DNA of 64,000 nt from an uncultured Chloroflexia bacterium (GTDB taxonomy: Bacteria > Chloroflexota > Limnocylindria > Limnocylindrales > CSP1-4). A model generated the notes under the pieces. That model was not told where the DNA came from and did no database searches. It saw nothing but the letters and a program-made list of their open reading frames with translations. A program made the position numbers and the translations under genes. The stretch spans positions 88,863 to 152,862 of the forward strand of contig CAVUAG010000016.1 of assembly GCA_963739365.1 (NCBI GenBank), given 5' to 3'. Of the stretch, positions 24,189-38,336 are shown piece by piece. Numbering within the stretch: position 1 is the first letter of the stretch; each line of letters begins with the position of its first letter.

Positions 24189-27100
24189 CCGCCCGCCCGG
24201 GCGGTGCCCGGCGCCGCGCGACGCCTCCCGCGGGAGCGGCGCTCGACGCAGCCGCCCACCGCGTCCCCGACCTCTCGGCCCTGCCGCCGCTGCTCCACGC
24301 GACGCCCGCCTTCCGCGATCTGCGCGCGCGCCTGGAGGGCCCGCTCGGCGTCCGCGGCCGCCACGCGGCCGTCACGGCAGTTCCCCACGGCGCGAAGTCG
24401 TTCCTCGTCGCGGCCCTGGCCCTGGCCGAGGGCCGGCCAGGCCTGCTGGATCGCCCGGGATGCCGAGATCGGCGACCGGGTCGCGGACGAGCTGGTGGCC
24501 TGGCTTGGTGACGCGGAGGGCGTGGCGGTGCTGGAGCCGCGGTCCGCGCTGGCCTACGAGCGAAGCGAGCTGATCCGCGACGAGTCGGCCGCCCGGGTGG
24601 CCACCCTCGCCCGGTGGCGGAGTGGTCGGGCGCGGATCCTCGTGGCATCGGTCCAGGCACTCCTCCAGCCGACGATCACCCCGGCCGACCTCCCCTCCAG
24701 CCCGCGCGTCCTTCGCCGCGGCGACCGGCTTCGCCAGGACGAGCTGCTGGGCGAGCTCCTCCGGCTCGGCTACGAGCCCGTCCTCGAGGTGGCGGGGCGG
24801 GGTGAGATGGCCCGCCGCGGCGGCCTCGTCGACCTCTTCCCGGCCGGGGCCGACCTCCCGGCCCGGATCGAGCTCTTCGGCGACGAGATCGACGAGATCC
24901 GGCTCTTCGATCCTACCGACCAGCGGACCGTGCGCCCGGTCGAGGCCATCGAGCTCCTGCCGGCCAACGAGTTCCTCGTCCCGGCCGCGGGGGTCGGGGA
25001 GATTCGCGTCCGGCTGGGGCGGCTCGCCGGCCATCTGCCGGAGCGGCTGGCCGCCGATCTCGCCCGCCTCGAGGGAGCGGACGCGCCCGCGGCTGCGGCC
25101 GACGCCACCGCGAGCCCCGGGCGCCCGGGCCCTCGACGTGGGCGACGCGGCAGAGGTCTGGTCGGCTGTCGTCTGCCCGTCGAGCGGCCTCGCCCACCTC
25201 GGCCCCGACACACTCCTCGTCGTCGACGAGCCGGGCGAGGTCGCCGCCGCGGCCGAGTTCCTGTGGGAGCAGGCCGCGGAGCGGCGGCGCGACCTCGTGG
25301 GCGCGGGCGAGCTCCCCCGGGGAATGGCCGTCGGCCTACGTGGAGCCGCGGGCCTGGAAGGCCGGCCTCCTCGCTGCCCGCACCCTGGAGGTGACCTGGG
25401 AGTCCGGGCCGATGGAGGCGATCGGCGGTGCCCCCGCCCTCGACGACCCGTTCGGCTGGCGCGAGCCGGTGCTACCGCCCGGACGCAGCGCCGGCCTGTC
25501 GCGGGCCATCGAGCGCTGGCGGGCCTCCGACCCGGTCCCGGGCATCGTCCTCGCCTCGGACCAGGCCACCCGCCTGGCCGAGCTGCTCGGCGAGGCGGGG
25601 ATTCCCGCCGGGGTCACCATGGCCCCGGGCGCCCCGCCACCGGGCGCCGTTGCCCTGGTCGGGCGCAGCCTGAACGCCGGCTTCGGCGGCGGTCCGGACG
25701 GCCTCGTGCTCGTCACGGACCGCGAGCTCTTCGGGACCGTCCGGGTGCGCCGCCCCAAGGCGCTCCGGCGCGTCGTCCCCCGCGACATCCTGGAGCGCCT
25801 CTCGCCCGGCGACCTCGTCGTCCACATCGACCACGGCATCGCGCGCTACGAGCGGATGCTTCGCCGCGGTGGCACCGGCGAGGAGCGGGACTACCTCGAG
25901 CTGTCGTTCGCCGCCGGCGATCGCATCTACGTGCCCGTCGAGCAGATCGCCCGCGTGAGCCGCTATGCCGGCGCCGAGCGACCGTCGCTCTCGCGCCTCG
26001 GTGGCGGCGAGTGGAGCCGGACCAAGAGCCGAGTCCGGAAGGCCGTCGCGGACCTCGCCGACGAGCTGCTCCGCCTCTACGCGGCCCGGGCCGCGGCGGA
26101 GGGCTACGCGTTCGCCCCGGATACGCCGTGGCAGCAGGAGCTCGAGGCCTCGTTTCCCTACGAGGAGACGGTCGACCAGCTGCGGGCGGTCGACGAGGTC
26201 AAGGCCGACATGGAGGCCGCCCGGCCGATGGACCGAATCGTGGTGGGCGACGTCGGGTACGGGAAGACCGAGGTCGCCCTGCGAGCAGCGTTCAAGGCGA
26301 TCCAGGACGGTCGGCAGGTGGCAGTCCTCGTGCCGACCACCGTCCTCGCCGACCAGCACGTGCGGACGTTCGACCAGCGCTACGCGGCGTTCCCGGCCAC
26401 CGTCCGCCTGCTCTCGCGGGCCGTGTCGGCCAGGGAGCAGGCGGCGACGCTGGCAGGCCTCGAGGCTGGCTCCGTGGACGTCGTGGTCGGGACGCATCGG
26501 CTCCTCTCGAAGGATGTCCGCTTCCGGGACCTCGGCCTCCTCGTCGTCGACGAGGAGCAGCGCTTCGGCGTTGCCGCCAAGGAGCGCCTCAAGCAGCTCC
26601 GCACCGAGGTCGACGTCCTGACCCTCTCGGCGACGCCCGATCCCCCGGACGCTCAATCTGGCCCTCGTCGGGGTCCGCGACCTGTCGGTCATCGAGACGC
26701 CACCCGAGGATCGGCTGCCGATCCAGACCCGGGTGGCCGAGGCGTCCGCGGGCCTGGTCAAGGACGCGATCCTGCGCGAGCTGGACCGCGGCGGGCAGGT
26801 CTTCTTCGTCCACAACCGGGTCGAGACGATCGAGGCGCAGGCTGACCAGCTGCGTCGCCTCCTGCCCGCCGCGCGGATCGTCGTGGGCCACGGTCAGATG
26901 TCGGAGGGCGCCCTCGAGACGGTGATGCGGACCTTCGCCGGCGGGGACGCCGACATCCTCGTCTGCACCACGATCATCGAGTCCGGGCTCGACATCCCGA
27001 ACGCCAACACGATCATCATCGACCGGGCCGACGCGCTCGGGCTCGCCCAGCTCTACCAGCTGCGCGGCCGCGTGGGACGGAGCAGCCGGCGCGCCTACGC

Positions 27101-27872
27101 CTACCTCCTCCACCGGCGCCGCGACCGGCTCTCCGACGAGGCGCGGCGCCGCCTGCAGGCCATCTTCAACGCTTCGGAGCTGGGCGCTGGCTTCCAGATC
27201 GCCCTCGCCGACCTCGAGATCCGGGGCGCCGGCAACATCCTTGGCGGCGAGCAGTCGGGCCACATGGCGGACGTCGGCTTCGACCTCTACACGCGGCTGC
27301 TCGCCGAGGCGGTCGAAGAGCGGAAGGCGGCCTGGGAGGGCCGCGAGCCGGTCCGGGAGGCCCTCGGGGCGACGGTCGACCTGCCGGTGGATGCCCACCT
27401 GCCCGATGCATACGTCCCGGACGAGGCCCAGAAGCTCGAGCTCTATCGTCGCCTCGCCAGGGTCCGCTCTGCGGGCGACCTGGCCGCCTTCCGCCAGGAG
27501 GTCACCGATCGCTTCGGCCCGCTGCCGCCGCCGGCCCTGCGCCTCGTCGAGGTTGCCGAGCTCCGCTTGGCGGCCGAGGCGGCCGGCATCGCGTCCGTGG
27601 CCCGCGAGGAGGGATCGCTGGTCGTCCGCTTCGGGAGCGGGCTTTCGCGCGGGGAGGCGATGCGCCTCGTGGCAGGGGCGCCGCTGCCGGGCGTGCGGCC
27701 GGGCGACATCACCTTCGCCGCGGCGCAGGTGCGGATCCGCGCGCCGCGGGATCCCGGCCGCTCCTGGGCCCTCATGCTGGCCCTCGTGGCCCGCGTTGCT
27801 GCCGCCCGGGAGATGGTTCAGGTCCCGGCGACGCCCTCGGCCGCGGAGCCCTCGCCCGCCGATAGCCGGTAG
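24185..27872 (+). pseudogene. mfd: Transcription-repair coupling factor Mfd, at least 5 frame breaks
   Basis: A GTGA overlap joins it to pth. TRCF hallmarks are spread over 5 ORF pieces: GDLVVHIDHGIARY, GDVGYGKTEVALRAAF, LLVVDEEQRFGV, TLSATP, VFFVHNRVETIE, GLDIPNANTIII and QLRGRVGRS. Confidence 0.9.
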
Positions 27873-28577
27873 CCCAGGCCGTACTCGGTCTCGATGAAGC
27901 GGCGGCCAGGCGCGGCCGCGCCGAGCTTTGCCCGCAGGTTGCGGATCGCGACCCGCAAGAGGTGGTGGTCGTCGCGATAGCCGGGACCCCAGGCGGCAAC
28001 GAGCAGGTCGCCGTGCGACACGAGCACGCCGTCGTGCTCGGCGAGGTGGCGCAGGAGGCGGTACTCGGTCGGCGTGAGGTGGACCGGGGATCCGGCCACC
28101 TGCACCTGGTGGGACCGCCCGTCGATCCGGAGCCCCGGCAGTTCGATCGTGTCCGAGGCGGCCGGCAGTGGGCAGCGCGGCCCGGGACCGGCGGAGCGCG
28201 GCGGCCACGCGGGCCACCAGCTCCGGGAAGCTGAGCGGCTTGGTCACGTAGTCGTCCGCCCCGATGGCCAGCCCGCGCACCTTGTCCGCCTCCGAGCCGC
28301 GGGCGGTGACGACGATGATCGGTACGAGGCTCTCCTCGCGGACCCGCTCGATGACGTGCCACCCGTCGACGCGCGGGAGGCCGAGGTCCAGGACGATCAG
28401 GTCCGGCGGCCGTTCGGTGATCGCACGGAGGGCGTGGGCGCCGTCCGGTGCGATCTCGGGCCGCCAGCCGTGGCGCTCCAGCCAGAGCGCGATGAGCTCC
28501 GCGAAGGCCGGCTCGTCCTCGACTACGAGAATCCGTTCGCCGTTGCCCGCGATCGGACCGGCGGGAGTGCTCTTCAC
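27818..28577 (-). pseudogene. OmpR/PhoB-family response regulator, one frame break (about 28165)
   Basis: The receiver domain (ILVVEDEPAF...DLIVLDLGLP...TARGSEADKV...DDYVTKP) is in one frame. The winged helix (LTPTEYRLLRHL...IETEYGLGYRL) is in another. The GTG start overlaps the kinase stop (GTGA at 28574-28577). Confidence 0.85.
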
Positions 28578-30280
28578 GAGATCTCCGCGGTGGTGTCGCG
28601 CGCTCCCGTGTCGGTGGGCGCAACGGGCAGGCCCACCGAGACCGACGTGCCGCGCGTCGTGGCGTCGAGCCGGATCCACCCGCCGTGGGCCTCCACGATC
28701 CGGCGGCAGAGGTAGAGGCCGAGCCCACTGCCCGGCACCTGCCCGTCCACCGCCCGGGCGCCCCGGAAGAAGCGCTCGAAGATGTGGTCGCGATCCTCGG
28801 CGGGGATCCCCCGCCCATCGTCGGCGATCGTCATCACGACGGTCGCGGGGCCGAGCCGGCGCGCCCGGATCTCGATGATGGCCATGTGGCCCGCGTGCCT
28901 CTCTGCGTTCTGGACGAGGTTCGCCACCACCTGCCGGATTCGCGCCGCATCCACGTCGACGGGGGGCAGCCCACGGGGGACCTCGAGGCGCACGGATCGC
29001 CCCCCCGGCGCCTCCGCGCGCTCGGCGACGATCGCTCGCAGCAGGCTGTCGAGCGCGACCGGCGAACGGCGCAGGACGAGAGCGTGGGTCTCGAGCTGGC
29101 TCACGTCGATGATGTCGTCCACGAGGGCCATGAGCCGCTCCGTGGCGTCTGCGATCCGGTCGAGGTGGCGCCGCGCGGTCGCCGTGTCAGGGTTGAGGTG
29201 ACGGAGGCTCTGGGTGTAGCCGTCGATCAGGGCAAGCGGGGTGCGGAGCTCGTGCGACACGGCGGCCACGAAGCTGGTCTTGGCCTCGTCGAGCGATCGC
29301 GACGCGCGCAGGTCGCGCAGGATGCCCACGGCGCCGCCGTCGGGCACGGGCATGCGCGAGACGCTCGCGGCAACCGGGATCGTGGTCCCGTCCCGGTGGC
29401 GGACGCCGATCTCACGGCCGACGATCACATCACCGGTGCCGAGGACCTCCTCGAATGGGCAGCGTGTCCCACACAGCAGACCCGCCGTGCGCGGCAGGGG
29501 CGGCTCGTCAAGGGCGTCGGCACCGTCGGGTGACGTCGCGTGGCAGCCGAGGAAGTCCGAGCAGCGCATCCCCGTCCCGGCCTGCGTCGGCATCCCGACG
29601 AGCCCCGCCGCGGCAGCGTTGAGGCGCACGACGCGCCGTCCCGCGTCGACGGCCACGATGGCGTCGGTAGCCCCGTCGAGAATCGCCGCCAGGGTTGCCT
29701 GCTCGCGCGCGAGGGAGGCCCGCAGCTGGGCCGCGCGCAGGGTGACCGCCAGCTCGAGGCGGACCGTCGCGAGGTAGCGGGCATGGTTCGTCTCGAGGGG
29801 CGCCCCGGCATCGGCGCGGACGGCCAGGTACCCGACGGCCCGCCGGACGCCGCCGCCCGGCTCCTCTCCCCCAACGGCCCGACCCTCGGGGAGCGAGATG
29901 CCGCTCCAGCCGCCGGCGGCCGCCCACCGCCCGGCCGCCGTGGTGTCCGCGAACCGGCTCGGGACGGCGGCCCAGCCGCGACCGACCGGACCGTCCGTGC
30001 CGCCCGGGAAGGTGGCGACCAGCTCGAGCCGGGGATCGCCCGGGTCAGCGAGCCAGAGTGCCGCCCCGGCGGCCCCCGATGCGCGGGCCACCTCGGCCAG
30101 GACCGCGGCCGCAAGCTCGTCGACCCGCCCGCCGGCGGCCAGGAGCTGGCTCAGCTGGTACTGGGCAAAGACCGCGTCGGCCTCGCGCTGAGCGTCCTCG
30201 AAGACCCGGCGCCGCTCGGCCTCCAGCTGACGGATTCGGTCCTCGAGGGCGGCCTGCCGGTCGACTCCCTGGTCGTTCAC
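28574..30280 (-). CDS. Soluble sensor histidine kinase: coiled coil, GAF-like, PAS (4 Cys), HisKA, HATPase
   Basis: H-box SHELRTPL, N-box VVANLVQNAERH and G-boxes DDGRGI / GSGLGLYL. No hydrophobic TM segment is present. A GTG at 30280 overlaps the dhaL stop (GTGA). The ORF could alternatively start at 30334. Confidence 0.85.
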   Translation of the reverse strand: MNDQGVDRQAALEDRIRQLEAERRRVFEDAQREADAVFAQYQLSQLLAAGGRVDELAAAVLAEVARASGAAGAALWLADPGDPRLELVATFPGGTDGPVGRGWAAVPSRFADTTAAGRWAAAGGWSGISLPEGRAVGGEEPGGGVRRAVGYLAVRADAGAPLETNHARYLATVRLELAVTLRAAQLRASLAREQATLAAILDGATDAIVAVDAGRRVVRLNAAAAGLVGMPTQAGTGMRCSDFLGCHATSPDGADALDEPPLPRTAGLLCGTRCPFEEVLGTGDVIVGREIGVRHRDGTTIPVAASVSRMPVPDGGAVGILRDLRASRSLDEAKTSFVAAVSHELRTPLALIDGYTQSLRHLNPDTATARRHLDRIADATERLMALVDDIIDVSQLETHALVLRRSPVALDSLLRAIVAERAEAPGGRSVRLEVPRGLPPVDVDAARIRQVVANLVQNAERHAGHMAIIEIRARRLGPATVVMTIADDGRGIPAEDRDHIFERFFRGARAVDGQVPGSGLGLYLCRRIVEAHGGWIRLDATTRGTSVSVGLPVAPTDTGARDTTAEIS

Positions 30281-30984
30281 GGGCCACCGTCCTCGTCGAC
30301 GACGCGGGCCATCGCGTGGAGCATCAGGAAGCACGACGTCGCGCCGGGGTCGCGGTGCCCCCGCGATCGCTCGCCGAGGCGAAGCGCCAGGCCGCGCCGC
30401 GCGACGAGGGGGATCGTCGCGCGCATCCCGCCCGCGGCCGCGGCCGCAGCAGCGGCAACGCAGGAGCCGAGGGGGAGCGATGCGTCCGATCCCGCTCGAA
30501 GGGCCCGGACGGCGGGATCGAGGGCGTCGAGGATCGTCTTGTCACCCACCGCGCACCTCCCGCGCCTCATCAGCCCGGCGCGGGCCGCTTCGAGCGCCGT
30601 GGCCAGGTCGGCCGGCCCCGAGGTGGCCTGCCCGGCCAGCGCGAACCCGGCTTCGATCAGCGCGGTTCCGTAGAGCGGGCCGCTGGCGCCGCCCACGCTC
30701 CCGACCAGGGTGTGGCCGAGGCGGCGCAGGAGCTCGCCGACGTCGTCGGGGTGCTCCACGAGGGCAGCCCGCGCGACCGGAACCGCGGCGCTGAAGCCGG
30801 CCACCATGTTGCTGCCGTGGTCCCCATCGCCGAGGGCGGCGTCCAGGCGGTCGAGAAGCGCCTCGTGACGCACCAGGGTCGCCGCCGCGCGCTCCACGAA
30901 GGCCAGCACGTCGGGCGCCGAGAGCCTGCCGACACCGGCGGCTTCGGCGGGCGCGGGGGCACTCGAGAACCCTATTCTCTGCAT
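30277..30984 (-). CDS. dhaL: DhaL (Dak2) domain protein, diverged paralog 1, first gene of the kinase/regulator operon
   Basis: 235 aa with motifs [23 protein letters not shown] and GDKTILDAL. The C-terminal RGLALRLGERSRGHRDPGA diverges from the usual [17 protein letters not shown]. Confidence 0.85.
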   Translation of the reverse strand: MQRIGFSSAPAPAEAAGVGRLSAPDVLAFVERAAATLVRHEALLDRLDAALGDGDHGSNMVAGFSAAVPVARAALVEHPDDVGELLRRLGHTLVGSVGGASGPLYGTALIEAGFALAGQATSGPADLATALEAARAGLMRRGRCAVGDKTILDALDPAVRALRAGSDASLPLGSCVAAAAAAAAGGMRATIPLVARRGLALRLGERSRGHRDPGATSCFLMLHAMARVVDEDGGP

Positions 30985-31059
30985 CGGACACCTGAGTCTA
31001 CGGCGGTCGGCGCGGCCGCGCGACGCCGTCGCCGCCCGGCAAGGAGAAGGAGGCCGCGC

Positions 31060-31504
31060 ATGATCGCGCTGGCACTGGTCGGCCACAGCGAGGAGCTGCT
31101 CCGCGCCCTGGCGGCGATGGTTGCCCAGGCCGCGCCCCGCGTGCCGGTCGTCATCGCGGGCGGGACCCCGACAGGGAGCCTGGGCACGAGCAGCCCCGGG
31201 ATCGTCGCCGCGCTCCGGGCCGCCCTGGAGGCTTCGGCCGGGGAGGGTGTCGTCGTCCTCTTCGATCTCGGCAGCGCCGTGCTCGCCCTGGAGGTCGCGC
31301 TCGAGGAGCTGCCCGACGGCGACCGCGCCCGGATCGCGGTGAGCGACGGTCCCCTCGTCGAGGGAGCCGTGCGCGCCGCCGTGGAGGCTGCCGGCGGGGC
31401 GAACCCTGGCCCAGGCGTGCGCGGTCGCCGACGGCGAGCGGGCCACCGCGAAGCTGCCGCCGGACTGGCCGGATCGGCCCGGCGGGCGACCGGTCGCGCG
31501 GTGA
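31060..31504 (+). pseudogene. dhaM: DhaM-like PTS EIIA(Man)-fold phosphotransfer domain, copy 1, one frame break near 31400
   Basis: AAGGAGAAGGAGG lies upstream of the ATG. MIALALVGHSEEL carries the His9 phospho-site motif. DLGSAVLA and GPLVEGAV are also present. The alternative-frame tail ...TLAQACAVADGERATAKLPPDWPDRPGGRPVAR* stops at 31502-31504. Confidence 0.75.
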
Positions 31505-32212
31505 ACGGACGATCTTCTCGTTCGCTGGCTGACGCTCGCCGGCGCCCGGGTCGCCGCCGCCCGTGAATGCCTCACGGACCTCGACGCCGCGATCGGTGAC
31601 GGCGACCACGGGATCAACCTGGACCGCGGCTTCCGCGAGCTGGTCCGGCGCCTCGAGGCGGGGCTCCCGGGCGCCGACGTCGCCGCGCACGAGACGGCCG
31701 GCCGCGATCCTCGAGGGCGCCGGCCGCGCGCTCATCGGCTACCGTGGGCGGGGCGAGCGGCGCGCTCTACGGGCGGGGCTTCCAGCGGGCCGGCGCAGCG
31801 CTGCTCGGGCCGAGTGGCGACGCGAGCGCCGCCCGAGGGCCGGTCCGTGGAGGAGCGCGCCGTCATCGCGTTCGGCGCCGCCGTCGACGCCATTGCCGCC
31901 CTGGGCCGGGCGACGACCGGCGAGAAGACGATGCTCGACGCGCTGGTCCCGGCGCATGCCGCGTTCGCGGCGGCCATCGCGGGCGGGGCGGCGATCGGCC
32001 TCGCGGCCCGGCGAGCGGCCGAGGCTGCCGAGGCCGGCGCGGCGAGCACCATTCCGCTGCTCGCGACCAGGGGCCGCGCCAGCTACCTGGGCGAGCGGTC
32101 GATCGGCCACCTCGATCCCGGCGCCGTCTCGAGCGCGATCCTGCTTCGAGCGCTGGCCGACGCCGCCGGGGAGGATGACGGCCCCGGCCCGTCAATCCGG
32201 ACAAAGTCCTGA
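31501..32212 (+). pseudogene. dhaL: DhaL (Dak2) domain protein, paralog 2, at least 3 frame breaks
   Basis: GTG at 31501 (GTGA with the dhaM-1 stop). Motifs LDAAIGDGDHGINLDRGF, GGASGALYG, GEKTMLDAL and [20 protein letters not shown] are distributed over three frames. Confidence 0.75.
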
Positions 32213-32468
32213 CGATTCCTCGCGGTGCGGAGTCGTAACCTTTCCGCAACGGTGCTCCCGGGCACCGTGCGCCGGCCGCGCCCAGCGGTCGCGCGGCCAG
32301 GGGCCGTGGCCGCGACACGACGGGAGGGTCGCACCCGAGAAGATCGTTCGGTGCCTTGACCGGCGAGCCCCCACCGGGTGCTCACTCGCCGGACCCTAGG
32401 TTCGATCGGCGACGTGGCGTCGCCCCTCGCGCGATTGGCGCGCTTCCTTCAACCCAGAGGGAGAGAGC

Positions 32469-33239
32469 ATGCAACTCGATATCTTCATGGCCGAGGTCTT
32501 CGGGACGATGATCCTGATCCTCCTCGGCGACGGCGTGGTCGCCGGCGTTCTCCTCGCCAAGTCGAAGGCGAACAACGCCGGCTGGGTCGTCATCACCTTC
32601 GCGTGGGCCTTCGCGGTCTTCGCCGGCGTCGTGGTGGCCGGGCCGTTCAGCGGCGCCCACCTCAACCCGGCCGTGACCATCGGCATCTACGCGAATGACC
32701 TCCTGGCCGGCAACGAGATCGACGCCGCCCTCTTCGGGACGTACATCGCCGGCGAGATGATCGGCGCGATGATCGGTGCCTTCCTCGTGTTCCTCCACTA
32801 CTACCCGCACTGGGCCGTGACCGAGGACCCGGGCCTCAAGCTCGCCGTCTTCTCGACGGGCCCCGCGATTCGCAACACCGTCTGGAACTTCTGGTCCGAG
32901 GTGGTCGGCACCTTCGTCCTGGTCTTCGTGATCTTCACGCTTCGGGAACAACGTCGGGTCCCGGAGACGGGTGGCCTCGCGTCCCTCGGCGCCCTGCCGG
33001 TTGCCTTCCTCGTCCTCGTGATCGGCATGTCCCTCGGCGGGACGACCGGATACGCGATCAACCCGGCCCGCGACCTCGGGCCGCGGATCATGCACGCGAT
33101 CCTGCCGATCCCCGGCAAGGGCAGCTCCGACTGGGCCTACTCGTGGATCCCGGTCGTCGGCCCGCTCGTCGGCGGCGTCGTCGCGGCGATCGTCTACCAG
33201 CTGATCTTCGTCACCACGATTGTCGAGGCGGCCTCCTGA
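32469..33239 (+). CDS. glpF: Glycerol uptake facilitator (aquaglyceroporin)
   Basis: 256-aa intact ORF with two NPA motifs (HLNPAVT, INPARD). AGAGGGAGAGAG lies upstream of the ATG. Confidence 0.92.
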   Translation: MQLDIFMAEVFGTMILILLGDGVVAGVLLAKSKANNAGWVVITFAWAFAVFAGVVVAGPFSGAHLNPAVTIGIYANDLLAGNEIDAALFGTYIAGEMIGAMIGAFLVFLHYYPHWAVTEDPGLKLAVFSTGPAIRNTVWNFWSEVVGTFVLVFVIFTLREQRRVPETGGLASLGALPVAFLVLVIGMSLGGTTGYAINPARDLGPRIMHAILPIPGKGSSDWAYSWIPVVGPLVGGVVAAIVYQLIFVTTIVEAAS

Positions 33240-33355
33240 CCGAGGCTGGTTGACACGCACGCACCGCGCGCCGGCGGCCCAACGGCCTCGCCGCCGGCGC
33301 GCATCCATCTCTCGCACGTTCCCGAGCACCCGGCACATCGGCATAGGAGGAACGG

Positions 33356-34354
33356 ATGAAGAAACTCATCAACAGCCCCGACACCGTCGTCGACGACGCC
33401 CTGATCGGTGTCGTGGCGGCGCACGGGGACCTCGTGCGCGTCATCGAGCCCAACGTGGTCGTGCGCGCCGATGCCCCCAAGGCCGGCAAGGTCGGCGTGC
33501 TCTCGGGCGGCGGCAGCGGCCACGAGCCGATGCACGGCGGCTTCGTCGGGATGGGCATGCTCGACGCGGCCTGCCCCGGCGCGGTCTTCACGTCGCCTGT
33601 GCCGGACCAGATGCTCGCCGCGACCAAGGCGGTCGACGGTGGCGCCGGCGTCCTGCACATCGTCAAGAACTACACCGGCGACATCATGAACTTCGAGCTC
33701 GCGGCCGAGATGGCCCGGGCCGAGGGGACCGAGGTCACCAGCGTCGTCATCGCGGACGACGTCGCGGTCAAGGACTCGCTCTACACGGCGGGTCGCCGTG
33801 GCGTGGGTGGGACCGTCCTCGCCGAGAAGATCGTCGGGGCCGCCGCGGAGGCGGGCGCCGACCTCGCGACGGTGACGGCGCTCTGCCAGAAGGTCCAGGA
33901 CAACGTCCGCTCGATGGGGATGGCCCTCACGAGCTGCACCGTCCCGGCCGCCGGCAAGCCGACCTTCGAGCTCGGCGACGACGAGATGGAGATCGGCGTC
34001 GGGATCCACGGGGAGCCGGGCCGGACACGGATGAAAGTCACGTCCGCGGCCGAGATCACCTCGATGCTCGCCATCCCGATTCTCGACGACCTCCCCTTCG
34101 TGGCCGGCGACAAGGTCCTTGCCTTCGTCAACGGCATGGGCGGCACGCCGCTCATCGAGCTCTACGTCGTGTTCGCGGAGCTCAAGAAGATCCTCGACGG
34201 GCGCGGGATCACGATCTCCCGCAACCTGGTCGGCAGCTACATCACCTCGTTGGAGATGGCCGGCTGCTCGATCACCCTCCTCCGCCTCGACGACGAGCTG
34301 ACGAAGTACTGGGATGCGCCGGTCCTGACACCGGCCCTCCGCTGGGGCCTCTGA
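33356..34354 (+). CDS. dhaK: Dihydroxyacetone kinase, DHA-binding subunit DhaK
   Basis: 332-aa intact ORF with motifs [16 protein letters not shown] and [10 protein letters not shown] (the hemiaminal His). Confidence 0.95.
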
Positions 34355-34394
34355 AGCCGGGCGTCGTTCCCAGCCCACCGCCCGCAGAGCGGGC

Positions 34395-35048
34395 ATGGAG
34401 CCGCCGATGATCTCGTATGACGACATCCTTGCCTGGGTCCGCCGGTTCGCCGCCGTTGTGGCGGAGAACAAGTCGTACCTCACGGAGCTGGACTCGGCGA
34501 TCGGCGATGCCGATCACGGGATCAACATGGATCGCGGCTTCACCGCCGTCATCGACAAGCTGAACGGCCCGGACGGCCTCGCCGGCCCCGACATCGGGGC
34601 GGCCCTCAAGGCCGTCGGAAGCACCCTCATCTCGAAGGTGGGGGGCGCCAGCGGCCCGCTCTACGGGATGTTCTTCCTGCAGATGGGAGGCGCCGTCCTC
34701 GGGAAGGAAGCCCTCACGCTGGAGGAGTTCGCCACGGCCTTCGAGACCGGCCTGGGCGGGGTTCTCCGAATCGGGAAGGCCGACCCTGGCGACAAGACGA
34801 TGGTCGATGCTCTCATTCCCGCCCGCGACGCGCTCCGCGCCGCGATCGCCGACGGCGCGTCCGTCGGCGATGCCCTGGCCAGGATGGCCGCGGGGGCGGA
34901 GGCGGGGATGCTCGCCACGGTGCCGCTCGTGGCCCGCAAGGGTCGGGCGAGCTACCTGGGCGAGCGCTCGGCCGGGCACCAGGATCCCGGGGCGACGTCC
35001 ACGCACCTGCTGCTGCGGTCCGCCGCAGACGTCTGGGCCGGGCTCTAG
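34395..35048 (+). CDS. dhaL: Dihydroxyacetone kinase, ADP-binding subunit DhaL (paralog 3, canonical)
   Basis: Intact ORF with motifs [36 protein letters not shown] and [20 protein letters not shown]. The ATG at 34407 is an alternative start. Confidence 0.92.
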
Positions 35049-35086
35049 CCCGGCGTATCAAGGTCACCGGATATCGGGAGACAAAC

Positions 35087-36586
35087 ATGGCAAGGACTTT
35101 CGTAGGGGCCCTCGACCAGGGGACCACGAGCACCCGCTTCATGATCTTCAACCACGCCGGCGCGGTCGTCGCGGTCGATCAGATGGAGCACGAGCAGATC
35201 TATCCGAAGCCCGGTTGGGTCGAGCACGACCCGATGGAGATCTGGGCGCGCAGCCTGGACGTCATCAAGGGCGCGCTCAAGAAGGCCAACCTCAAGGCTG
35301 ACGATCTCGCCGCGGTCGGCGTCACCAACCAGCGCGAGACGACGGTCGTCTGGGACAAGCGGACCGGCAAGCCCGTCTACAACGCGATCGTCTGGCAGGA
35401 CACCCGGACGAAGGACATCTGCGACGCGCTCGAGAAGGACGGCGGCCCGGATCGCCTCCGCCCGAAGACGGGCCTGCCGCTGGCGACCTACTTCTCCGGC
35501 CCGAAGGCCAAGTGGGTCCTCGACAACGTCGACGGCGCGCGCGCCGAGGCCGAGGCGGGCAACCTGCTCTTCGGCAACATCGACACCTGGTGCATCTGGA
35601 ACCTGACCGGCGGCGTGAACGGCGGCGTCCACGTGACGGACGTCTCCAACGCGAGCCGGACGCTCATGTTCAACTACACCACTCTCGCCTGGGACCCGGA
35701 GATCACGGCGCTCCTCGGCGTGCCGGAGAAGATGCTCCCGGCCGTCAAGGCGTCGTCCCAGATCTACGGCATGGCCGTCGGCGACCTGGCCGGCGTCCCG
35801 GTCGCGGGTGACCTGGGCGACCAGCAGGCCGCCCTGTTCGGCCAGACGTGCTTCTCGCCCGGCGAGGCGAAGAACACGTACGGCACGGGCTGCTTCATGC
35901 TCCTCAACACGGGCACGAAGGCGGTTCCGAGCAAGAGCGGCCTCCTCACCACGCTCGCGTACAAGATCGGCGACCAGCCGGCCGTGTACGCGCTCGAGGG
36001 CTCCATTGCCATCACCGGCGCCCTCGTGCAGTGGATCCGCGACAACATCGGCCTGATTGCTGCGTCGCCCGACATCGAGGCGCTCGCCGCGACGGTCGAG
36101 GACAACGGCGGTGTCTACTTCGTGCCGGCGTTCTCGGGCCTCTTCGCGCCGTACTGGAAGAACGATGCGCGCGGCGTCATCGCCGGCCTGACCCGGTACG
36201 TCAACAAGGGCCACATCGCGCGTGCCGTCCTCGAGGCGACCGCGTGGCAGACCCGCGAGGTCCTGGACGCGATGAACGCCGACTCCGGCGTTCCGCTCAC
36301 GGCCCTCAAGGTCGACGGCGGCATGGTCTTCAACAACCTCCTCATGCAGTTCCAGTCCGACGTCCTGAAGGTTCCGGTCATCCGGCCGAAGGTCGCCGAG
36401 ACGACGGCCCTCGGGGCGGCCTACGCGGCCGGCCTGGCGGTCGGCTACTGGGCTGAGATCGAGGACCTCCGCGCCAACTGGGCGAAGGACCACGAGTGGT
36501 TCCCGAAGATGGATGCCGCCAAGGTCGACGCCGAGTACGCGCAGTGGAAGAAGGCCGTCACCCGGACATTCGGCTGGGTCGACTAG
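35087..36586 (+). CDS. glpK: Glycerol kinase
   Basis: 499-aa intact ORF with FGGY motifs ([41 protein letters not shown]). Confidence 0.97.
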
Positions 36587-36602
36587 CCTCCCGGCCCCTC
36601 AC

Positions 36603-36636
36603 CTCGGGCCCCCCGGCACGTTCCGGGGGGCCCGAG
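36603..36636 (+). terminator. Strong GC hairpin after glpK
   Basis: ctcgggccccccgg-cacgtt-ccggggggcccgag forms a perfect 14-bp stem with a 6-nt loop, 17 nt after the glpK stop. There is no clear U-tract. Confidence 0.6.
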
Positions 36637-36703
36637 ACATGTCAGCCTCATGTCACCCGCGGGCCACGCCCGCACAAGGCACCGACAGATCGAGGTGAGC
36701 AAC

Positions 36704-38336
36704 ATGGCTGAATCCCACGCTTACGACGTCCTCGTCGTCGGCGGGGGTGCGACCGGGGCCGGGGTGCTCCGCGATCTGGCGCGGCGAGGCCTGCGCACGC
36801 TGCTTGTCGAGCGCGGCGACTACGGCACCGGCACCACCGGGCGGTACCACGGCCTTCTCCACTCGGGCGGCCGATACGTCGCCAAGGACGCGCTCGCCGC
36901 GCGCGAGTGCATCGCGGAGAACCGCATCCTCCGTCGCATCGCACCGGCCAGCATCGAGGACACGGGCGGCTTCTTCGTCGCCACGCCGGACGATCCCGAC
37001 GACTACGTCGATGCGTTTCCGGCGGCCTGCGTTGCCGCCGACGTCGACTGCGAGGAGATCCCGGTCCAGGAGGCGCTGCGGCGCGAGCCGGCCCTCAACC
37101 CCGGCATCCGCCGCGTCTTCCAGCTGCCGGATGGCTCCATCGAGCCGTGGCACCTCATCGAATCGAACATCGCGGACGCGCGCGCCCGGGGCAGCGAGGC
37201 CATGTGCTACCAGCGGCTCGTGTCCATGGAGCGCGACGGTGACCGGATCGTGGCGGCAACCATCCGCGACGAGCACTCCGGGAGCCTGACGCGCATCACG
37301 CCCCGGTTCGTCGTCTCGTGTGCGGGTGCCTGGTCCGGGCAGATCGCGGCGATGGTCAACGTGACCGTCACGATGCACCCCGGCAAGGGCACGATGCTCA
37401 TCTACAACCAGCGCATGACCGACACGGTGATCAACCGCTGCCACAAGGCCTCGGACGGCGACATCATGGTGCCCGTCCACACGGTTGCCATCCTGGGCAC
37501 GACCGAACAGCGCGTCGAGGATCCGGACCAGTACGAGATCACGCGCGACGAGGTGGCGGCCCTGATCCGCCAGGGCGAGAAGCTCTTCCCCGACCTCGGG
37601 AAGATGCGTCTCCTCCGCGCCTATGCCGGCGTGCGGCCGCTCTACCAGCCACCCGCCGAGGTGACCGCGGCCGCGGAGAAGGACGGCCGCCAGATCTCCC
37701 GAGCTCACACGGTCATCGACCACGGGGCCCAGGACGGCGTGGAGAACTTCGTCACCATCGTCGGCGGCAAGATGACGACGTTCCGGCGGATGGCCGAGGA
37801 CACGGTCGACGCGGTGTGCGCCAAGCTGGGCGTCACCGAGCCATGCACCACGGCCGACGAGATCCTGTCCCAACCAGGTGCCCGGCCAGACCTACTGGCT
37901 GGGCCACCGGTTGGCAGACCACGAGGCCGAGGGCGGTGGCGATGCCGCGCTTCTCTGCGAGTGCGAGCTCATCACGCGGCCGATCCTGGACGAGTACCTC
38001 GACCGCCACCCCGGCGCCACGCCCGACGACCTCCGGCGCGGGACCCGGCTCGGGATGGGTCCGTGCCAGGGCGGCTTCTGCACGTTCCGCGCCGCCGGCG
38101 TCCTCGGCGAACGGGCGGGGCGGGCAGGTCACGCCGCGGTTGCCGACCTGTCCGACCGTGCGATCCTGGGGTTCCTCCGGGAGCGTTTCAAGGGGACGCG
38201 GCCCATCGCGGCCGGCCGCCAGCTGCAGGAGCAATGGATGATCTCCGGCGTCTACCAAGGTGGGCTCGGGGTGGACTCGCTGATCGAGCACGTTGCGCCC
38301 CAAGCGTCCGCGGAGGTGTCCCATGTCGAGGGCTGA
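36704..38336 (+). pseudogene. glpA: Anaerobic glycerol-3-phosphate dehydrogenase subunit A, one frame break (about 37870)
   Basis: FAD fold YDVLVVGGGATGAG. The C-terminal BFD-like 2Fe-2S region CECELIT...GMGPCQGGFC lies in a second frame (ORF 37878..38336). Confidence 0.85.

Follow-up and report, generated by a model that had tools for sequence, protein, structure and literature searches.

A diverged DhaL paralogue coupled to a soluble histidine kinase: a plausible two-component variant of dihydroxyacetone kinase-based regulation in Chloroflexota

The 64,000-nucleotide stretch of DNA analysed here (the window) comes from contig CAVUAG010000016.1 of an uncultured Chloroflexia bacterium (assembly GCA_963739365.1) and carries, on its minus strand, three chained genes that form the subject of this study. 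The first of them, DhaL-1 (30277..30984), specifies a 235-amino acid Dak2-domain paralogue of DhaL, the L subunit of dihydroxyacetone (DHA) kinase; proteins of this type will be referred to as DhaL'. It is followed by the gene for a soluble histidine kinase of 568 amino acids with a GTG start (28574..30280) and by the sequences for the two domains of a response regulator, a receiver (28168..28577; GTG start) and an OmpR-type winged helix (Trans_reg_C; 27818..28166). GTGA stop/start overlaps link DhaL-1 to the kinase at 30280-30277 and the kinase to the regulator at 28577-28574. A first-pass annotation of the sequence had placed DhaL-1, the kinase and both overlaps exactly so, and the assignment of DhaL-1 was confirmed by Pfam (Dak2, 3.6e-45) and by the TIGR02365 model, whose cut-off the protein passes. 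That annotation had also given the regulator as one gene running from 28577 to 27818; this 760-nt span contains no single open reading frame (ORF), and receiver and winged helix lie in separate frames. As had been noted, the trio is divergent from two plus-strand genes, dhaM-1 (31060..31504), which encodes an EIIA-man-type DhaM, and dhaL-2 (31505..32212; start approximate), which encodes a DhaL of the canonical type. Further along the plus strand, from position 32469, lie glpF (32469-33239), dhaK (33356-34354), a canonical dhaL with the KGRASY motif (DhaL-3; 34395-35048) and glpK (35087-36586), the presumed target operon. Judging from sequence comparisons, the pairing of DhaL' with a histidine kinase is apparently a plausible, undescribed variant of regulation based on DHA kinase subunits.

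The adjacency of the two genes, whose conservation in related taxa had been left as a question by the first-pass annotation, extends throughout the class and reappears in a second kinase family whose genes are ordered differently. Full-length homologues of the kinase are abundant in metagenomes, where they are named Chloroflexota or Candidatus Limnocylindrales. Using an alignment of the sensor region as query against one genome per GTDB species, we recovered 78 loci, of which 77 belong to labelled Chloroflexota lineages (several of them Limnocylindria) and one (L070) was binned as Rokubacteria; their sensors are 35 to 94 % identical to that of the window. A DhaL'-type gene lies directly 5' of the kinase in every species-level locus with upstream DNA (75/75), and the regulator is found downstream. 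The junction between DhaL' and kinase is a 4-nt NTGA overlap in 64 of these 75 loci and a 1-nt overlap in three; in seven it is a small gap or affected by indels, and in one the frame runs on. The opposite strand carries dhaM, usually dhaL-2, then glpF, dhaK, a canonical dhaL and, usually, glpK. In the deepest branch, with sensors 35-42 % identical to that of the window, dhaL-2, glpK and the mfd flank are missing, and the genes for DhaL', kinase and regulator are still divergent from dhaM-glpF-dhaK-dhaL. Because this branch keeps the core though the flanks differ, the linkage goes beyond frozen synteny.

The association also holds when the search starts from DhaL. Generic DhaL patterns, used as seeds for a metagenome scan, yielded 80 loci, 17 of them of the DhaL' type. 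All 14 genes of the GLA[L/M]R or GIALR type with downstream DNA precede a kinase, as opposed to none of the 63 other loci, in which the readable motifs are GRASY or GRSSY and DhaL mostly comes after dhaK and before glpK or dhaM. Across the loci of both scans, the DhaL' gene never adjoins dhaK and always adjoins the kinase, and a second, canonical DhaL was found in every DhaL' locus of sufficient extent. Where neighbouring genes were called, no regulator other than the two-component system was present within the conserved cluster.

Gene content varies between branches. The window's clade carries three DhaL paralogues alongside a single DhaK: DhaL' goes with the kinase, DhaL-2 is coupled in translation to DhaM, and DhaL-3 follows DhaK. 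There are branches elsewhere with two DhaLs only. In the deepest branch (L065, L066, L071-L074, L077 and L080), an HPr-like coding stretch (DAKSLIALLGLTIRPSSEITL) is found between dhaM and glpF.

The kinase had been taken to be soluble, and indeed it has no hydrophobic segment, the highest mean hydropathy over 19 residues on the Kyte-Doolittle scale being 1.33. Pfam recognises HisKA (4.8e-16) and HATPase_c (5e-27), a PAS domain at the cut-off and GAF_3 below the cut-off; the H, N, G1, F and G2 boxes are all legible (SHELRTPL, NLVQNAERHA, DDGRGI, FERFFRG and GSGLGL), and none of the named NCBIfam equivalogs reached its cut-off. Two AlphaFold models (pLDDT, the predicted local distance difference test score, 83.5 and 86.1) resolve the sensor into a long N-terminal helix (aa 3-49; 30134..30274) bearing the motif FAQYQLSQLL, a GAF-fold domain (aa 53-165; 29786..30124), a second long helix (aa 166-203; 29672..29785), a PAS domain (aa 207-323; 29312..29662) and a connector helix. 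Then come HisKA (aa 333-398; H-box SHELRTPL, His343) and HATPase_c (aa 444-554), together spanning 28619..29284, also on the minus strand; past the sensor Pfam finds these two domains only, and AAA+ or HTH output domains are absent. In Foldseek searches, GAF domains matched the first part of the sensor and PAS sensors matched the whole of it, the best matches of the helix-GAF model being the GAF domains of a sigma-54-dependent regulator and of PtsP. These results bear out the GAF and PAS folds that the first-pass annotation had proposed for the N-terminus. What it had overlooked is a set of four cysteines in the PAS domain, C240, C246, C270 and C274 (codons 29563-29459), which are invariant in 65 aligned orthologues. 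They are spaced C-x5-C...C-x3-C-P/R-F around a variable, disordered insert, and in the deepest branch the motif takes the form C-x5-C-x5-H-x4-C-P. A conserved spacing of four cysteines (Cys4), or of three with a histidine (Cys3His), is typical of metal or iron-sulphur (Fe-S) sites, and a possible site of this kind is predicted here.

A second family of DhaL'-linked kinases (family 2, as distinct from family 1, to which the window's kinase belongs) was discovered through the deviating layout of a metagenome locus, L127. These kinases are about 396 amino acids long and have the order helix-GAF-HisKA-HATPase: HisKA comes straight after GAF, and both the PAS domain and the cysteines are missing. 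Their N-terminal helix (DDMFALYQLAQLL) is the same as that of family 1, and GAF is recognised by Pfam in some members. The N-terminal modules of the two families are homologous (hhalign probability 97 %), and residues A39, Y41, Q42 and Q45 of the helix are invariant in both, which makes this helix a candidate docking or dimerisation surface. In Chloroflexota metagenome-assembled genomes (MAGs), the family 2 genes form a one-strand operon, with DhaL', kinase and OmpR-type regulator followed by dhaM-HPr-glpF-dhaK-dhaL-ptsI (L163, 6318-12377; L165; L166; L127; L170). DhaL' here has 228 amino acids and a 4-nt overlap with the kinase, and the operon is a complete DHA kinase system, dependent on the phosphotransferase system (PTS), behind the regulatory trio. 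Since family 2 does without PAS, that domain is not essential for the link to DhaL', and the DhaL'-associated part of the kinase is the helix together with GAF. The link is a restricted one: upstream of two GAF kinases that are more remote (P0362 and P0358; 31 % identity) there is another kinase in place of a Dak2 gene, which puts the wider GAF-kinase group outside it. The trio and dhaM are not contiguous in the P0287 locus, where the insertion comprises a PAS protein, a metallo-beta-lactamase-fold protein and a PIN toxin pair.

On balance, these data incline us to view DhaL' as a dedicated signalling paralogue and as a partner of the kinase in the control of the dha/glp operon. The alternative that survives best is that the kinase responds to redox state, oxygen, a metal or a small ligand through its Cys4 PAS domain or GAF pocket, DhaL' being merely co-expressed or a minor modulator. 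Such a role would account for the four cysteines invariant in 65 orthologues and for the Cys3His variant of the distant branch, and the GAF fold does resemble ligand-binding GAF domains. A precedent exists in staphylococcal NreB: this cytoplasmic PAS kinase carries an Fe-S cluster and is, in addition, modulated by the accessory GAF protein NreA (PMC8774646). However, family 2, without the PAS domain or the cysteine motif, still has DhaL', its overlap with the kinase gene and a dha operon around them; what all DhaL'-linked kinases have in common is the N-terminal helix and GAF; and the association of DhaL' with the kinase is perfect in the scans from either side. We therefore consider this alternative unlikely. 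The Cys4 PAS domain of family 1 is probably an added second input to a kinase that acts together with DhaL'.

The DhaL' protein itself has both kept and lost features of DhaL. DhaL-1 matches E. coli DhaL at 3e-35, including the chain present in the DhaR-DhaL complex 4LRZ, and scores 169 bits against TIGR02365 (equivalog cut-off 138.3), 60 below the 229 bits of the canonical paralogue (NCBIfam). The motifs D-x4-D-x-D-H, GGASGP and VGDKT are kept, and the C-terminal segment, RGLALRLGERSRGH, has diverged from canonical DhaL; the first-pass annotation had quoted the nucleotide/Mg motifs and this segment correctly. We aligned 71 DhaL', 44 DhaM-linked and 64 DhaK-linked sequences, window copies included, with E. 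coli DhaL. Residues D30, D35, D37 and H38 (E. coli numbering), the GGASG loop and GDKT are retained across the DhaL' clade, the three aspartates being the Mg ligands of DhaL (PMC9136124, PMC10848957). By contrast, the canonical motif G-[R/K]-A-S-Y-L-G-E-R-S has become R-G-L-A-[L/M]-R-L-G-E-R-S throughout the DhaL' clade, the deepest branch and family 2 included. The strict GLA[L/M]R pattern occurs in 61 of the 71 DhaL' sequences, and a looser re-check missed it only in a fused call (L016) and a masked sequence (L079). The R of GRASY is Arg178; the position is occupied by R in the solved proteins of E. coli, L. lactis and C. freundii, and by R or K in all readable motifs among the 150 closest cluster representatives (of 1.8 billion proteins), the DhaL' group excepted. 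The C-terminal divergence that had been noticed in the single copy of the window thus defines the whole DhaL' clade and affects a position where the other readable close DhaLs all have R or K.

One could envision that DhaL-1 is simply a further catalytic DhaL isoform that works with DhaK and resides in the regulator operon for co-expression only. All Mg and nucleotide motifs are in place, the equivalog threshold is passed (169 vs 138 bits), and the genomes of the window's clade already hold multiple DhaL copies. Nevertheless, DhaL-1 has lost the G-[R/K]-A-S-Y motif that is invariant in the catalytic DhaLs examined, and falls 60 bits short of its canonical paralogue. Moreover, genes of its type stand beside the kinase, mostly with a 4-nt overlap, and never beside dhaK, in loci that also encode a canonical DhaL wherever their extent suffices. 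A purely catalytic role appears quite improbable to us.

In DHA kinases that depend on the PTS, the ADP on DhaL receives its phosphate from a phospho-histidine protein (PMC9136124, PMC6429413). By analogy with this charging of DhaL by DhaM, the phospho-histidine of the kinase might re-phosphorylate ADP bound to DhaL', or DhaL'-ATP might donate its phosphate to the kinase, so that DhaL' would be a carrier and not an allosteric partner. Apart from the analogy, the conserved nucleotide ligands of DhaL' and its translational coupling to the kinase are compatible with such an exchange. Yet the kinase has a full ATP-binding domain as well as a cognate regulator, and can therefore do without a phosphoryl donor or acceptor from elsewhere; for the charging of DhaL, the same operons supply DhaM, HPr and EI, and the altered GRASY motif may impair phosphotransfer. 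Direct exchange of phosphate between the two proteins thus seems very improbable.

The frame breaks of the window call for comment. Compared with its closest intact orthologue, of 245 amino acids, in L004, the regulator of the window has one surplus base near 28167; the gene is unbroken in further loci as well. Both of its domains score highly in their two frames (receiver 2.8e-27, Trans_reg_C 4.6e-20; Pfam), with PhoB and the other equivalog models of NCBIfam staying below their cut-offs. There is also one frame change near 31395 in dhaM-1, and two are required in dhaL-2. Elsewhere in the window, mfd is split into three ORFs (24204-27872) and the C-terminus of glpD is garbled (about 37900). 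Split matches of this kind occur in many loci of long-read 'MFD' MAGs and are absent from the short-read MAG loci examined (e.g. L014, L019). Because mfd and glpD are broken too, many 'MFD' MAG loci are likewise split and orthologues are intact, the breaks are probably assembly indels rather than signs of decay, and the source is probably a long-read MAG. That the window's locus is decaying, with a pseudogenised regulator and an arrangement now devoid of function, would fit the frameshifts in regulator, dhaM-1 and dhaL-2, but it is hardly credible given that housekeeping genes are hit as well, that the splits go with long-read assemblies, that orthologues such as the L004 regulator are intact and that the domains are well preserved on either side of the shift, for all of which sequencing indels are the simpler explanation.

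A candidate box for the regulator, made of two 11-bp direct repeats, TCCGGACAAAG and TCCTGACGATT, is present at 32196-32217 on the plus strand, where it overlaps the stop codon of dhaL-2. It lies 21 nt upstream of a conserved TAACCT (32236..32241, plus strand), which cross-species conservation marks as the putative -10 element of the glpF operon; the box centre would thus be near -41.5. In the window's clade the box before glpF reads TCTGGACAATG TCTTGACGATT, and in the sister sub-branch CCTAGACGTTT CCTTGACGTTT at the same position. The deepest branch has three (T/G)CAAGA repeats with 11-bp spacing (TCTTGAC on the dhaM strand) upstream of dhaM, and in L067 the sequence upstream of dhaM, TTCTTGACGTTTCCTTGACG, is nearly identical to the glpF box of the sister sub-branch. 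In family 2, AT-rich 11-bp-phased repeats, including TTCTTGAT, are found between the regulator gene and dhaM. The repeats before glpF and dhaM in family 1 are of the type T(C)TTGAC. OmpR/PhoB-type activators usually act at direct repeats that are one helical turn apart and overlap the -35 region, and the phased repeats suggest that the dha/glp operon is under the control of the regulator.

The trio may have its own promoter. A conserved TAGACT (30995..31000, minus strand), the putative -10 element of the mRNA for DhaL-1, kinase and regulator, lies 10 nt before the DhaL-1 ATG in the window; TAGACT, or TACACT in other branches, occurs 7-10 nt before the ATG (window 30971-31003; L024, L027, L034-L042 and L075). 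As these -10-like sequences are so close to the ATG, with no Shine-Dalgarno sequence, the mRNA would be leaderless or near-leaderless. In one sub-branch, this element belongs to an inverted repeat, GTAGACTC-N11-GAGTCTAG, that spans the DhaL-1 start codon, and one arm of the repeat equals the distal half-site of the glpF box. These sequences could represent back-to-back -10 elements or an autoregulatory site.

These elements can be assembled into a proposed mechanism. DhaL', translationally coupled to the cytoplasmic histidine kinase, would bind the kinase and act as its co-sensor, most likely through the conserved N-terminal helix and the GAF module. The kinase would then set the phosphorylation of the OmpR-type regulator, which would bind the phased 11-bp repeats at the DHA/glycerol promoter (that of glpF-dhaK-dhaL-glpK here, of dhaM-HPr-glpF-dhaK-dhaL elsewhere) and activate transcription. 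As in the E. coli DhaL-DhaR pair, the signal would presumably be the ADP/ATP state of DhaL', set by DhaM and the PTS on the one hand and by DHA-loaded DhaK on the other. It is tempting to speculate, and we do so only tentatively, that DhaL' is a pseudo-enzyme on which the kinase reads the ADP or ATP form of the coenzyme, charged by DhaM/PTS and discharged by DHA-loaded DhaK, and that the metal- or redox-type PAS domain of family 1 adds a second signal.

Several points weigh against this interpretation. The change from R/K to L in DhaL' could abolish phosphotransfer or nucleotide turnover, which would undercut a signal based on nucleotide state, and the invariant Cys4 motif suggests that the family 1 kinase may also sense something else. 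The sensor of the kinase is not specifically DhaR-like, as detailed below. No box was found before glpF in the third family 1 clade (L028, L029, L031, L038, L043-L061, L076 and L078). A scan of 27600-32600 for consensus promoters and terminators found nothing, so that conservation is the sole basis of the promoter and box assignments. The sample consists throughout of uncultured MAGs from one phylum. Finally, there are no genuine fusions of DhaL with a kinase among the 150 best representatives. Two proteins had the appearance of fusions and were rejected as indel artefacts: in P0041 (822 amino acids, Dak2 plus kinase) the DhaL part lies in two frames on a contig where glpK and mfd are broken, and in P0121 (627 amino acids) the Dak2 domain is cut at position 115 of 174. 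In the remaining long Dak2 proteins, DhaL is joined to DhaM(-HPr-EI), or the fusion partner is a P450.

The arrangement inspires analogies with the DhaR system of E. coli. According to the account in PMC10084136, which cites Bachler 2005 and Shi 2014, the N-terminus of DhaR consists of tandem GAF and PAS-like domains; the same account has DhaL activating and DhaK repressing DhaR according to the ATP/ADP load of DhaL (PMC10084136). The first-pass annotation had proposed that this GAF/PAS sensing logic recurs here in two-component form. Conservation of the adjacency and the presence of both folds support the proposal in part; a specific relationship to DhaR did not emerge. An hhalign comparison of the kinase sensor with residues 1-318 of E. 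coli DhaR gave a probability of 36 %, covering the linker helix and the start of PAS only. The DhaR(N) structures 4lrx, 4lry and 4lrz rank 16, 17 and 21 among generic PAS matches of the whole sensor in Foldseek, and DhaR(N) is absent from the top 50 matches of the helix-GAF model. A sequence search of the PDB with the sensor returned marginal FixL-type matches only, with NreB not among them. With the same domain order and no specific relationship found, the likeness to DhaR lies in logic and architecture and does not demonstrably stem from a common ancestor. In both systems, an L subunit of DHA kinase is associated with a cytoplasmic regulator with an N-terminal GAF-long helix-PAS arrangement, the genes of the regulator lie next to the dha genes or diverge from them, and the context is that of a PTS-dependent DHA kinase with DhaM. 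In contrast to DhaR, which is an AAA+/HTH protein of the enhancer-binding type, the output here consists of a HisKA/HATPase kinase and an OmpR-type regulator; the DhaL involved is a dedicated, diverged paralogue instead of the catalytic subunit itself, and PAS is dispensable in family 2.

A second parallel is offered by L. lactis, where DhaQ, a DhaK paralogue, co-activates the TetR-family regulator DhaS (PMC7590123). There too, sensing for the dha operon falls to a co-factor that is a specialised paralogue of one of the DHA kinase subunits and whose gene accompanies that of the regulator (PMC7590123). Differences lie in the origin of the paralogue, DhaQ being derived from DhaK and binding DHA whereas DhaL' derives from the nucleotide-binding DhaL, and in the partner, a one-component TetR protein in the one case and a kinase with a response regulator in the other. 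DhaR with DhaL and especially DhaS with DhaQ are the closest functional analogues of the system. In staphylococcal NreA-NreB-NreC, a soluble cytoplasmic PAS kinase with a cysteine-ligated cofactor site is under the control of a small accessory protein from the same operon that reports a metabolite (PMC8774646); site and control have putative counterparts here. However, NreA is a nitrate-binding GAF protein and not a Dak2 protein, the GAF domain is inside the kinase here, and cysteine spacing, regulator class and target genes all differ. PII (GlnB) acts on NtrB in a comparable way: a small protein carrying a nucleotide or metabolite signal sets the kinase/phosphatase balance of a soluble kinase by binding to it. 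In that case the protein families are unrelated and no paralogue of an enzyme subunit is involved. In the literature searched, we found no description of DhaL or Dak2 together with a histidine kinase or two-component system.

That the subunits of DHA kinase control their own operon is a textbook case of a trigger enzyme; to our knowledge, such control has so far been described only with one-component regulators, DhaR or DhaS with DhaQ. If the mechanism outlined above is correct, the same idea of sensing through DHA kinase subunits would have been captured by a two-component system, in a third independent wiring after the AAA+ DhaR and the TetR-type DhaS/DhaQ. A PTS-fed trigger-enzyme paralogue would then provide a direct two-component input, representing a new class of cytoplasmic histidine-kinase co-sensor, and would connect the state of the PTS and of nucleotides with phosphorelay signalling in a phylum, the Chloroflexota, for which we know of almost no characterised regulation. 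On a practical level, the GLA[L/M]R signature offers a simple rule for separating regulatory DhaL' from catalytic DhaL, which current models name identically. With only three soluble proteins and one short DNA box, the system is also small and would lend itself to heterologous reconstitution.

Two further observations concern the DNA upstream of glpF. In the third family 1 clade, dhaL-2 and glpF are separated by 0.7-1.2 kb (L054, 2651-3863; L053, 3327-3966; L038). A search of this gap for an ORF that might represent an extra regulator gene produced no convincing candidate, L054 having an acidic, low-complexity ORF of 175 amino acids; no TTGAC-type box was found there, and the gap does contain a conserved GAAAGGAGGAGCCACCGGAGGAGG stretch. 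In the window, the putative -10 element of the glpF operon is followed by a hairpin-rich leader of about 226 nt (32243..32468, plus strand). An Rfam scan of 27000-37000 at E <= 1 gave one chance-level match only, and none for this leader. Secondary-structure prediction yields stacked hairpins in which a TTCC pairs with the Shine-Dalgarno GGGA, with only two compensatory pairs. The leader may act as an attenuator, resemble a riboswitch or be bound by a protein. Its sequence is almost invariant in 21 species whose kinase sensors are 60-94 % identical.

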